Positions 39,267-43,981 of a DNA stretch of 64,000 nucleotides are shown here, piece by piece. Origin of the DNA: Escherichia coli (lineage in GTDB: Bacteria; Pseudomonadota; Gammaproteobacteria; Enterobacterales; Enterobacteriaceae); assembly GCF_003334765.1 (NCBI RefSeq), contig NZ_QOWT01000004.1. One strand, 5' to 3'. A program made the position numbers and the translations under genes. Within the stretch, counting starts at the first letter, position 1. The number at the start of each line of letters is the position of its first letter. The notes beneath the pieces are model-generated. The model was not told where the DNA came from and ran no database searches. It saw nothing but the letters and a program-made list of their open reading frames with translations.

Positions 39267-41690
39267 TTAAAATCTGAATGTCATATCGAATTCAACGTAT
39301 AAGTTGTGTTCTCTGTCACCGTCATAAGGTCGTTTTTCCCAGCGTAGCGTTGCGCCAGCATCAATCACGTCATTCCAACTAATGCGTTGCCCGTAGCCGA
39401 GTTGGGTGACGACATCCGTGCCATAATGTTTTTGCCAGGAGGCACCAACACCTGCGCTGAATATTTGCTCCCAGCTATTTTCATAGCTTCGCCATAACAA
39501 ATGGCTTGCCTCAAATGCCGGAACAATATCGAACGTTTTTATAGGGTTGTAGTATGGGGTATCGTGTTCTGTATTTTGTTCGTAATACAGACTGGGTAGG
39601 AAATCGACAATCAAATATGGTGAAGACCAGATGCGTTCCTGACCCTCAAGTGAGACTTCATGACGCTGGTTACTGTCGGAAAAATCAGTGAAAGCCCAGG
39701 AGACACCGTACTTACGCCGCTCATTTTGATACCAGCGAACATAAGCCTGAGCACTGTTGCCTGTAACACCATTTTTCATTGCCCGTAATGGAACGCGGTG
39801 AGAGAGGCGTTCCAGTTGCGAACCAATACGCCAGTTATCATTAAAATCATACCAGCCAGACAGGCGCGCGCCGGGTTTATGCTCATGATTGAAAACGCGT
39901 TCAGCGTACTCTGCCTCGAGCCAGATATTACGTGACCGCCACTCAACACCCGCAAGCCAGTCGCGAACAATCCCTTTTCCTTCGCTAAATTGTCCATCGG
40001 CATAACCGAATCCAGCAAAACCGCGCCAGTTATCCTTCAGCGGTGGTGAATAAACGATGGTGGTTAAGTCGACATCATGTTTACCACTATCCGGGCCTTC
40101 GGCATCAATTCCTGTTGAGCCAGCGATACGAAGCTCTGCAAGATTATGTACATCAACCGCACGTTTTAATCGTACAACGCCGGGATCTTGCGGTTCACGT
40201 TCGACAACATCGTGCGTTAAGACAGCTGCCTGCTGCCATTCTTGTAACGTTAATGCTGTCCAGGCTTGTTCAACCTCCAGATTAATATTACGTGGCTCGA
40301 TCACTTCTGCTTTTTTTAATTCATTTTCTGCTGCACGAGGCCAACCGCGGGCTTGTAACACACTCGCGTAATCAATGCGCAGTCCCTGATTTCCTGGTGC
40401 GTTATAAGCAAGCTCTCTGGCTGTCATTTCAGCCTGAGGAAGATCATTACTATATTTTGCTACGGTTGAGAGAAACGAATGCCCCTGTAACCAGGTATCA
40501 TTCGGGATGCTCGTAGGCGTGCCCATTAACCGAAGGAAAGGCGGCGAAGTATTAATGGTATGTTGGGTGACAGTTAGCGCGCCCGGATAATTTTCACTCT
40601 CCAGGTGGCTGTAAAAGAGATCCGCAAGTTCTTCATCGGATAAATCCGGGGCAATGGTCTCCTTGTGATAAAAGAGCTCGGTCATTATTGACTGTGCTTT
40701 TTTCGGCTGATGATCTTTGAGATAAGCCGATGCAACCCAATATTGCCCCCAGGGCGGAATAATTTGCCCCGTCTTTTTTAATCGCTGATAGTGAGAAATA
40801 ACGTCTTTATAACGATCGCGAGTTAATAACGCGCCAAGATGATCAACCTGAATACGCTGGTACTGGGCAGTGCGGTCTGGGTTATCGTGCCACAGAATTT
40901 CTAATGCAGCGTATTGGGCGAGGGCGCGATCGGCAATGGCATAACGTTCACTTTCACTGCGCGTAGGCATAAACGACAGTCTGACCAGTTCGGCATGAAT
41001 ATCAGCGCGAATATCTGGCGTTAAATTGGCATCGTCAATCGCGGCAGCAAGTTGATTATTACGTAATGCCTGCACGTATTCTGTGGGATATTGTTGCGTA
41101 GATGCATTTTCAGGTAATGACTCTGTCATCGCCCGTAATTCATCCTGATGACGCCCCGCCAGTTTATAGATATAGGCTTCTGCGAGTAAATTGGCTTTGT
41201 CCGGTGCTCCAGAGTTAAGCTGCTTAAGTTTAACCAGCGCAGTATCATAGTGACCAGCATCTGCCAGGGTTAAAATTTGTCCCCGTTGATAATCCTTATT
41301 TTGCGGCTCCAGAGAGAGCGCCTTTTGCCACAGTGTAAGCGAGTTTTGCCATTGTTGCAGGTTACGATAAGCGACGGCGACAGCTGCATAACCACGCGCT
41401 GGTAATTGCTGATGACGGTAGCGGTTGTAAACGGTAATAACCTGTTTATCTTGCCCGGCCCATAAGGCAATCTGTAACCAGTCAGCAATTTGGTTATTGC
41501 TGAGTGCTGATTTTAGTGCAAACCATGACAAAGCTGGCTGAGTATTACCCTTGCGAGCTTCAATAATCAATGCATCATAGGCGTTATTAACAGCACTCTT
41601 CGCCGCGGGACTCGCTGCTAAAAATGCGGCAGTAAGAAGTTTCAAAGCCCATTTGGTTTTCGGGCACCTTTTTCTGCTACTTGAATACAT
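39267..41690 (-). CDS. pgaA: PgaA, outer membrane PNAG export porin with TPR domain
   Basis: 807-aa ORF, N-terminal TPR-like repeats and C-terminal beta-barrel ending in aromatic residue (RF). Confidence 0.95.
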   Translation of the reverse strand: MYSSSRKRCPKTKWALKLLTAAFLAASPAAKSAVNNAYDALIIEARKGNTQPALSWFALKSALSNNQIADWLQIALWAGQDKQVITVYNRYRHQQLPARGYAAVAVAYRNLQQWQNSLTLWQKALSLEPQNKDYQRGQILTLADAGHYDTALVKLKQLNSGAPDKANLLAEAYIYKLAGRHQDELRAMTESLPENASTQQYPTEYVQALRNNQLAAAIDDANLTPDIRADIHAELVRLSFMPTRSESERYAIADRALAQYAALEILWHDNPDRTAQYQRIQVDHLGALLTRDRYKDVISHYQRLKKTGQIIPPWGQYWVASAYLKDHQPKKAQSIMTELFYHKETIAPDLSDEELADLFYSHLESENYPGALTVTQHTINTSPPFLRLMGTPTSIPNDTWLQGHSFLSTVAKYSNDLPQAEMTARELAYNAPGNQGLRIDYASVLQARGWPRAAENELKKAEVIEPRNINLEVEQAWTALTLQEWQQAAVLTHDVVEREPQDPGVVRLKRAVDVHNLAELRIAGSTGIDAEGPDSGKHDVDLTTIVYSPPLKDNWRGFAGFGYADGQFSEGKGIVRDWLAGVEWRSRNIWLEAEYAERVFNHEHKPGARLSGWYDFNDNWRIGSQLERLSHRVPLRAMKNGVTGNSAQAYVRWYQNERRKYGVSWAFTDFSDSNQRHEVSLEGQERIWSSPYLIVDFLPSLYYEQNTEHDTPYYNPIKTFDIVPAFEASHLLWRSYENSWEQIFSAGVGASWQKHYGTDVVTQLGYGQRISWNDVIDAGATLRWEKRPYDGDREHNLYVEFDMTFRF

Positions 41691-41924
41691 CCTGTATTAC
41701 TCCATGTATTGCCAAAATCTCTCTCTGTATCTAATTACAGGTAACTGAAAAGAAAGATATTTTTGCACCTCATAATCCGTTATTAAACGCGGAAGAGAGA
41801 CGTGAATTGTTGATGATGAGAAGAAGAAATGATGAGCAGAGTGTCCATATAAAATCCTTTTCTCGCCCGAAAATCCATTCCAATGATGAGGATCTTCAGG
41901 AATACGGCATAAATCCCAATGCCT
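41691..41924 (-). promoter_or_regulatory. pgaA 5' leader with multiple GGA motifs (CsrA binding sites)
   Basis: At least five to six GGA motifs on the mRNA strand including one overlapping the SD (caGGAtg context). Confidence 0.7.
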
Positions 41925-42276
41925 TTTTCAAAATAAATTAGGATTAAAATAATTAAATCAGTAAATTCCGATGCATGATTTCGGATTTTTCGAAAGTCCT
42001 GATGAAAGGCTGCGCTACGGCACTCACGGATTTAATTGTTATTCCTAATGTATCTATGAATTAATGTTTTATAAGGATTTTCTATAACCATTTATAAGTA
42101 TTTTCAAGCCTGGCTTGTTGCAAACAATGTATAAAGCACTTAGGCAATAATAATTACATTCAGCAACTATCATCATCGGTATTGTTTGTGGGCGGAATTT
42201 CATATTGACAACAGTACAGTTCTTATATCTATTAATAATAGAAAGGGATCTACAACCTACAGATTGGTGTAGCTTT

Positions 42277-43635
42277 ATGGAAAAAGACTATTTGAGAATG
42301 AGTAGTACTGTATTAGTGAGCTTATTGTTTGGGCTTGCTTTGGTTTTGGTGAATAGTTGGTTTAATCAGCCAGGCGTTGAGGAAGTTGTTCCACGATCAA
42401 CCTATCTGATGGTAATGATTGCTTTATTTTTTATCGATACTGTTGCATTTATTTTTATGCAGTTGTATTTCATTTATGACCGTAGGCAATTTTCAAACTG
42501 TGTACTTAGTTTGGCTTTTCTGAGTTGTTTGATTTACTTTGTTATAACCGTCATTATCATTCAGCAAATTATTGAGGAGCGTTTGACAAGCAGTGTTGTC
42601 CAAAATGACATTGCAATCTATTATTTGTTTCGTCAGATGAGTTTGTGCATATTAATATTTCTGGCATTGGTGAATAAAGTTAGTGAAAACACAAAACAGC
42701 GCAATTTATTTTCCAAAAAAATGACTTTGTGCATAAGTTTGTTTTTTGTTTTTGGGGGGCCGATAGTTGCTCACATACTTTCTAGTCATTATGAGAGCTA
42801 CAATTTACACATTGCCGAGTTAACCAATGAAAATGGTCAGGTGGTTTGGAAAGCCTCATATGTTACCATAATGATTTTCATGTGGTTAACCTTGCTTTCG
42901 GTTAATCTATACTTTAATGGTTTACGCTATGATATCTGGAATGGAGTGACGGTGATTGCTTTTTGTGCCGTACTGTACAATATCTCTCTGTTATTTATGA
43001 GCAGGTATAGCGTGTCCACTTGGTATATTAGTCGCACTATTGAAGTAGTCAGTAAGTTAACCGTTATGGTAATATTTATGTGCCATATATTCAGTGCGCT
43101 ACGAGTAACAAAGAACATTGCACATCGCGATCCCTTAACCAATATATTTAACAGAAATTATTTTTTTAATGAACTGACAGTTCAATCAGCATCAGCCCAA
43201 AAAACGCCTTATTGCGTCATGATTATGGATATCGACCACTTCAAAAAAGTCAACGACACCTGGGGGCATCCGGTTGGCGATCAGGTGATAAAAACAGTGG
43301 TGAATATCATTGGGAAAAGCATACGACCAGATGACCTTTTAGCGCGCGTCGGCGGCGAAGAGTTTGGCGTCTTGCTGACGGACATCGATACTGAACGTGC
43401 GAAAGCTTTAGCGGAAAGGATTCGGGAAAATGTTGAGCGTTTAACTGGCGATAATCCTGAATACGCTATACCACAAAAAGTGACGATTAGTATTGGCGCT
43501 GTTGTGACTCAGGAAAATGCGTTAAACCCAAATGAGATCTATCGACTGGCTGATAACGCACTTTACGAGGCGAAAGAGACCGGGCGTAATAAGGTGGTTG
43601 TGAGGGATGTGGTGAATTTTTGTGAGTCACCATAA
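42277..43635 (+). CDS. dgcT: Diguanylate cyclase DgcT/YcdT (MASE4 membrane domain + GGDEF)
   Basis: 452-aa frame from MEKDYLRMSSTVLV; N-terminal polytopic membrane domain, C-terminal GGDEF domain with RVGGEEFG active-site motif. Confidence 0.95.
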   Translation: MEKDYLRMSSTVLVSLLFGLALVLVNSWFNQPGVEEVVPRSTYLMVMIALFFIDTVAFIFMQLYFIYDRRQFSNCVLSLAFLSCLIYFVITVIIIQQIIEERLTSSVVQNDIAIYYLFRQMSLCILIFLALVNKVSENTKQRNLFSKKMTLCISLFFVFGGPIVAHILSSHYESYNLHIAELTNENGQVVWKASYVTIMIFMWLTLLSVNLYFNGLRYDIWNGVTVIAFCAVLYNISLLFMSRYSVSTWYISRTIEVVSKLTVMVIFMCHIFSALRVTKNIAHRDPLTNIFNRNYFFNELTVQSASAQKTPYCVMIMDIDHFKKVNDTWGHPVGDQVIKTVVNIIGKSIRPDDLLARVGGEEFGVLLTDIDTERAKALAERIRENVERLTGDNPEYAIPQKVTISIGAVVTQENALNPNEIYRLADNALYEAKETGRNKVVVRDVVNFCESP

Positions 43636-43981
43636 AGCGGCCTGGCACACGCGTTTGATGGAAGACGGCGTTCAGGCAATGCGCGATTATCTTGCCGGAC
43701 TGGATATCGCTTCGCCAGAGCATCAGGTTCTGATGAACGTAACAGCAAAAAGCGAGGTCGCTCCGTCAATTATCAAAGAAAATCTCTCATTACACTTAAC
43801 TCATACGGTGAAATGGACTGAATCTCTCGATACATTTCTGAATATGCCAACCCCGGTAGCTTTCCTTGAAATAAGTAATAAGCCCTATTTGGGGAATATG
43901 TTAAATGATTTTGCTGGCGTGGATCAGCAACGAGTTATGCATTGTCGTAAAGCATTTAGTGATGCAAAGGTATTCAAATGA
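43622..43981 (+). pseudogene. ymdE: ymdE, C-terminal fragment of a FabD-like malonyl-CoA:ACP transacylase
   Basis: 119-aa ORF alignable by eye to the C-terminal third of FabD (VKW/QWT, LEI/YEV segments) but lacking the N-terminal GHSxG catalytic region; overlaps ycdT 3' end and ycdU start. Confidence 0.6.

Follow-up and report, generated by a model that had tools for sequence, protein, structure and literature searches.

Recognition from sequence of the known CsrA-controlled leader of pgaABCD in a 64-kb stretch of Escherichia coli DNA

INTRODUCTION

The product of the pgaABCD operon is poly-beta-1,6-N-acetylglucosamine, a biofilm adhesin. The leader of this operon serves as a textbook example of biofilm formation being controlled post-transcriptionally at several layers, and it is the founding case in which a protein remodels RNA and thereby brings about Rho-dependent termination. 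In the summarised literature, the 5′ untranslated region is given a length of 234 nt, and Wang 2005 (Mol Microbiol 56:1648), as summarised by Figueroa-Bossi 2014 (Genes Dev 28:1239, PMC4052769), places six CsrA sites within it. Secondary sources on Wang 2005 state that two of the six cover the Shine-Dalgarno (SD) sequence and the AUG, and that these two are required for translational repression. The two 5′-proximal sites lie on the left arm (+61..+81) of a discontinuous hairpin spanning +61..+107, whose right arm holds the 5′ half of a rut site (Figueroa-Bossi 2014, PMC4052769). CsrA opens this hairpin and exposes rut, leading to Rho-dependent termination in vitro as well as in vivo (Figueroa-Bossi 2014, PMC4052769), and reviews of 2020 and 2025 retain this attenuation model for pgaA. 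Gel-shift, footprint and toeprint data for CsrA on the leader, together with mutational relief of repression, are reported in those parts of the literature drawn on here.

Two other CsrA-controlled leaders invite comparison. The glgC leader is alike in that one of two GGA sites joined by a CsrA dimer covers the ribosome-binding site; glgC has just these two sites, one GGA in a hairpin loop and the other over the SD, whereas pgaA has six reported sites and transcription attenuation in addition. The iraD leader is alike in being long, with several CsrA sites and a short open reading frame (ORF). Paired sites are bridged by the CsrA dimer over a range of 10–63 nt. Among site types, Kulkarni 2014 classes ACGGA as primary and lists AGAGA (Table 2) as a ‘secondary site’ of CsrA, with the pgaA footprinting paper among the sources.

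RESULTS AND DISCUSSION

Identity of the leader

We analysed a 64,000-nt stretch of E. coli DNA (the window), in which an initial annotation made from the letters alone had pointed to a match with the known CsrA-repressed pgaA leader. The interval concerned is 234 nt long and lies directly upstream of pgaA on the coding strand, with +1 at position 41924. Two features anchor what follows:

41691..41924, minus strand: pgaABCD 5′ untranslated leader, identical to BW25113 and equal in length to the published 234-nt 5′ UTR
39267..41690, minus strand: pgaA ORF of 807 aa, which opens the pgaABCD operon (ORF list and RefSeq annotation of the identical sequence)

A 681-nt query (41600..42280) is 100% identical to the chromosome of E. 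coli K-12 BW25113 and to many other E. coli chromosomes, and the matching records annotate this identical stretch as the pgaA-dgcT intergenic region. The RefSeq annotation of BW25113 gives the gene order pgaA, pgaB, pgaC, pgaD, with dgcT (ycdT) divergent; in the window, ORFs of 672 aa and then 441 aa come after the pgaA ORF on the minus strand. The proposed match is borne out, with full identity to BW25113 and the exact 234-nt length, and the interval is the same object as the K-12 leader studied by Wang 2005 and Figueroa-Bossi 2014 (PMC4052769), with identical leader, hairpin, rut bubble and SD/AUG sites.

We conclude, with a probability of roughly 95%, that the interval is the 5′ untranslated leader of E. 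coli pgaABCD, bound by CsrA at GGA-containing sites and repressed in at least two ways. This identification follows from sequence identity with an experimentally characterised leader, not from GGA statistics. The element is already known and thoroughly characterised, and the present result is a re-discovery; finding it again in E. coli adds nothing new, beyond the fact that a known element was correctly recognised from sequence. There are small additions, namely a list of those GGAs still found in Citrobacter, a 5′ hairpin that is conserved and carries a loop GGA, and an SD-AUG pair, likewise conserved, upstream of rut; these leave the overall picture unchanged.

Our own computations cover sequence identity, the positions of motifs, the hairpin prediction, the C>G bubble, SD/AUG accessibility and the pattern of conservation; the literature supplies the binding of CsrA, its competition with the ribosome, termination by Rho and the start of transcription (+1 = 41924). 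A scan for consensus promoters gave no sigma-70-like match on the minus strand for the published pgaA start. By eye, TATTTT at −11..−6 is a possible −10 element of the pgaA promoter, which is described in a review as NhaR-activated. An Rfam scan of 41000..43000 (E ≤ 1) gave 0 matches, leaving the pgaA leader outside the curated RNA families.

In the published mechanism of this leader, dimeric CsrA on +222 (the SD) and +233 (the AUG) competes with the 30S subunit and thereby blocks translation initiation. CsrA on +68 and +79, in the left arm of the marginally stable hairpin +61..+107, holds that hairpin open; the open hairpin frees the C-rich rut on the right arm, allowing Rho to terminate transcription inside the leader. 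Untranslated pga mRNA also decays faster, and titration of CsrA by the small RNAs CsrB, CsrC or McaS lifts both blocks. The initial annotation was right to speak of CsrA repression, but its account is incomplete, in that CsrA also induces Rho-dependent termination via opening of the hairpin.

GGA content of the leader

The minus strand of the leader contains seven GGA triplets, at +9, +44, +49, +68, +79, +147 and +222, and an eighth, at +233, crosses the boundary between leader and pgaA (GG from the leader, A from the AUG). The initial count of at least five to six GGAs upstream of pgaA holds and is an underestimate. Across the window the GGA density is 2.6 per 234 nt. Of all 234-nt stretches in the window, 1.9% (plus strand) to 2.6% (minus strand) contain at least seven GGAs and 0.5–0.8% at least eight, with similar values on a coarser grid, and mononucleotide shuffles of the leader reach seven GGAs in 0.7% of trials. 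The GGA density of the leader is moderately unusual and has no diagnostic value alone; it is undecisive by itself because some 14 further stretches elsewhere in the 64 kb match it.

Might the cluster have arisen by chance, from base composition or as part of the SD, and be devoid of a regulatory role? The 14 or so equally dense 234-nt stretches in the window are compatible with this, and so is the triplet at +222, as the SD consensus is AGGAGG and a GGA within it is expected anyway. Against it, the sense strand of the interval carries eight GGAs and the antisense strand three. The sequence is also identical to a leader with published evidence of binding by CsrA, of toeprints, of relief from repression by mutation and of CsrA-induced Rho termination. 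We give this explanation next to no weight, since the published binding and mutagenesis data have already refuted it.

Correspondence between GGA triplets and published CsrA sites

The positions relevant to the published sites, other than the hairpin GGAs at +68 and +79, are as follows:

41874..41881, minus strand: GGA +44 and GGA +49 (UUGGAAUGGAU), present in Escherichia leaders only and predicted mostly paired
41776..41778, minus strand: GGA +147 (AACGGAUUA), presumed published site 3, of the ACGGA primary type
41718..41726, minus strand: AGAGAGAGA run at +199..+207, presumed published site 4, lacking GGA and of the AGAGA secondary type
41701..41703, minus strand: GGA +222 in the SD (AUGGAGU), published site 5, accessibility 0.74 over the three bases
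41688..41692, minus strand: GGA +233 over the pgaA AUG (CAGGAUGU), published site 6

There is no one-to-one correspondence between GGA triplets and CsrA sites. Some five of the GGAs (+68, +79, +147, +222 and +233) match published sites: we assign sites 1 and 2 to +68 and +79, and sites 5 and 6 to +222 and +233. Site 3 is most likely the ACGGA at +147, and site 4 most likely the GGA-less AGAGAGAGA run, in which AGAGA occurs at +199, +201 and +203. The GGAs at +9, +44 and +49 apparently fall outside the six. The suggested comparison of GGA positions with published footprints gives partial agreement, with some five of eight GGAs corresponding to a site, three apparently extra and one published site apparently having no GGA at all.

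The GGA said to overlap the SD is indeed there: +222 lies within UGGAGU, 13 nt 5′ of the AUG, which is the position of an SD. At +233, GGAUGU fits the 3′ half of the SELEX consensus, and a pattern of A(N)GGA fits five of the eight leader GGAs. There are two pairs of GGAs with a spacing of 11 nt, +222/+233 (SD and AUG) and +68/+79. These spacings agree with what defines a CsrA leader, that is, at least two GGA-centred sites 10–63 nt apart with one over the ribosome-binding site.

Predicted structure and the rut region

Minimum free energy folding returned the same discontinuous hairpin as published, whether applied to the entire leader or to +61..+107 by itself. The two features concerned are:

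41818..41864, minus strand: weak ‘anti-terminator’ hairpin (+61..+107), with GGA +68 (41857..41855) and GGA +79 (41846..41844) in its left arm
41785..41843, minus strand: C-rich, G-poor rut region for Rho (+82..+140), with a C>G bubble and 15 YC dimers

The hairpin has a predicted energy of −6.4 kcal/mol and a z-score of −0.5, i.e. it is no better than shuffles, and the leader as a whole folds like shuffled sequence (z = 0.04). A weak hairpin is what the published mechanism requires. Scanned in 78-nt windows, the leader has more C than G between about +40 and +195, with a peak at +69..+146 (22 C, 7 G) that ranks in the top 1.4% of the strand; this bubble agrees with the published one at +50..+130 (Figueroa-Bossi 2014, PMC4052769). 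The layout of the attenuator is present in the window, with rut lying partly within a marginally stable hairpin and the CsrA-site GGAs +68 and +79 on the other arm.

Pairing probabilities divide the GGAs into two sets. Those at +9 (in a loop), +222 and +233 are predicted to be accessible, with +222 at the 89th percentile of the leader and +233 at the 75th. Those at +44, +68, +79 and +147 are predicted to be mostly paired, two of them, +68 and +79, ranking near the bottom of the leader's triplets in accessibility (7th and 19th percentiles). Single-strandedness, which the initial annotation had suggested checking by structure prediction, is found for the first set and not for the second. It had also been suggested that GGAs outside single-stranded contexts would count against control by CsrA; we rejected this as mis-specified, for the published mechanism needs +68 and +79 to be paired. 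Since that pairing belongs to the mechanism, GGA accessibility does not discriminate here.

Conservation in Escherichia and Citrobacter

We aligned seven leaders: that of the window, two from ordinary E. coli (∼97% identical to it), two from a divergent E. coli lineage (∼80%), these four taken from complete or draft genomes, and two from Citrobacter species, the PgaA proteins of which are 73–74% identical. A genome-wide scan for PgaA relatives had yielded four loci, and the one from Leclercia was left out, as its pgaA is apparently interrupted. In this locus (Leclercia adecarboxylata NCTC13032, L007, 1435..3814), the homologue, of 50% identity, has a longest ORF of 419 aa compared with a tblastn match of 2.3 kb.

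The only invariant islands in the seven leaders are the 5′ hairpin stem (+3..+6 with +15..+18) plus G10 and A11; AAGGAUUU.AUAUG (+66..+79), which holds site 1; and UACAGGAUGUAU (+229..+240), which holds site 6. Seven of seven leaders have the GGAs at +68 and +233. The five Escherichia leaders all have the SD GGA (+222), and the two from Citrobacter have it with a shift of one base; +9 is kept in six of seven. The remaining triplets are lost in part. In the four leaders from the divergent E. coli and from Citrobacter, GGA +79 reads GAA, GAG or GA- and +147 is missing (GGG in the divergent E. coli); +44 and +49 are absent from Citrobacter, where only +9, +68, the SD GGA and the AUG GGA survive. 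GGA bases are slightly more conserved than the remaining leader, both in the divergent E. coli (0.83–0.88 versus 0.75) and in Citrobacter (0.50–0.54 versus 0.40–0.42). Conservation of the motifs, raised in the initial annotation as a check, thus extends to +68, +233 and the SD GGA in all seven leaders, and fails in part for +79, +147, +44 and +49. The failure of +44, +49, +147 and +79 to persist beyond close relatives speaks for a chance cluster; the location of +68 and +233 inside the leader's only invariant islands speaks against one.

For the hairpin +61..+107, 81.6% of cells in the seven-sequence alignment are paired, versus 23–55% when the partners are slid, and three pairs show changes on both sides, which with seven sequences only is modest support. 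The hairpin was not clearly recovered when the divergent E. coli and Citrobacter leaders were folded on their own.

Distant pgaA paralogues (K. pneumoniae, Plesiomonas and IncF-type plasmids; 35–41% aa identity) were tried as a further test of conservation and set aside, their upstream regions being unalignable. These regions contain one to four GGAs and no SD/AUG pair. On these grounds, the arrangement of GGAs is confined to the chromosomal orthologue of Escherichia and Citrobacter.

A short ORF over the rut region

The leader contains a 21-codon upstream ORF (uORF), MDTLLIISSSHHQQFTSLFRV, at 41848..41783 on the minus strand (+77..+142), with AAGGA (+66..+70) 6 nt before its AUG (+77). Its presence raises the alternative that the upstream CsrA sites work through translation: ribosomes on the uORF would shield rut, and CsrA at +68/+79 would repress uORF translation and so expose it. 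The uORF covers the rut region almost exactly, and its GGA-bearing SD and start codon mirror the arrangement at pgaA itself. Moreover, AAGGAUUU.AUAUG is one of just three invariant islands, the uORF AUG persists in leaders that have lost the overlapping GGA +79, and there is a precedent at iraD for CsrA control via a short upstream ORF. CsrA binding accounts for the conservation of AAGGA just as well, however, and a frame left open for 21 codons could well arise by chance. The peptide itself varies, with 6 of 21 residues differing in the divergent E. coli and 10 codons only in one Citrobacter (as read from the alignment), and the exact peptide has 0 matches in a collection of 15 billion proteins. 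Mutation of the uORF AUG is reported to have had no effect in a Salmonella host (Figueroa-Bossi 2014, PMC4052769). Nor does the comparison with iraD extend far: whereas the iraD uORF is translationally coupled, that of pgaA ends 92 nt before the pgaA AUG and hence is not coupled, and mutation of its start codon is reported to be without effect. We regard a uORF-based mechanism as very improbable and retain opening of the hairpin by CsrA.

The 5′-terminal hairpin

One GGA apparently outside the published set lies in a conserved structure at the very start of the transcript:

41906..41923, minus strand: 5′-terminal hairpin (+2..+19), with a GGCAU/AUGCC stem and GGA +9 (41916..41914) in the loop, from folding and conservation

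This hairpin has a predicted energy of −6.7 kcal/mol (z = −2.6), and its loop GGA has a probability of being unpaired of 0.97–0.99. The hairpin is kept as far as Citrobacter, in which the loop reads AAGGAAC. High-affinity CsrA sites classically present their GGA in the loop of a hairpin, as here, yet this one seemingly is not among the six. Unlike the loop GGA of glgC, it lies 213 nt from the SD GGA, beyond the 10–63 nt bridging range. A 5′ stem-loop could equally stabilise the transcript against 5′-end-dependent decay.

These considerations suggest a tentative proposal with two branches. The 5′ hairpin might be a seventh high-affinity CsrA site, or a CsrA-modulated element of 5′-end stability, nucleating CsrA on the nascent transcript before +68 and +79 emerge; alternatively, a translated uORF over rut might aid attenuation in E. 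coli. Taken as a whole, we consider this proposal unlikely.

On the plus strand, the complement of the 5′ hairpin plus a T-run was flagged as terminator-like. The call, at 41906..41923, is probably spurious because no plus-strand gene ends there.

Surrounding region and related loci

Compared with BW25113, the leader itself shows no differences, and the window lacks the copy of IS3 between dgcT and ycdU. At 43636..43978, there are only ∼340 nt where BW25113 has IS3 between dgcT and an ACP S-malonyltransferase fragment/ycdU; given the absence of IS3, the window represents E. coli but not K-12 at this position.

The pgaA-dgcT region had no match in 1,141 of 5,426 complete E. coli genomes (21%). 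In E. coli strain EC2 (NZ_CP058571.1), IS1 is inserted in the region. Plasmids of E. coli, Enterobacter and Klebsiella, some of them of the IncF type, carry a distant pgaA paralogue (∼38% aa identity). From its upstream sequence, which has no GGA cluster, this paralogue is presumably outside the CsrA circuit of pgaA.

The divergent gene dgcT (ycdT; 42205..43635, plus strand) encodes a diguanylate cyclase of the GGDEF type and has itself been reported, with one consensus site, as a target of CsrA (Kulkarni 2014 among the sources). Its start is probably the ATG at 42278 rather than the mechanically listed TTG at 42205. The sequence AAAGGGAUC occurs ∼35 nt upstream of this ATG, on the plus strand (region 42240..42280).
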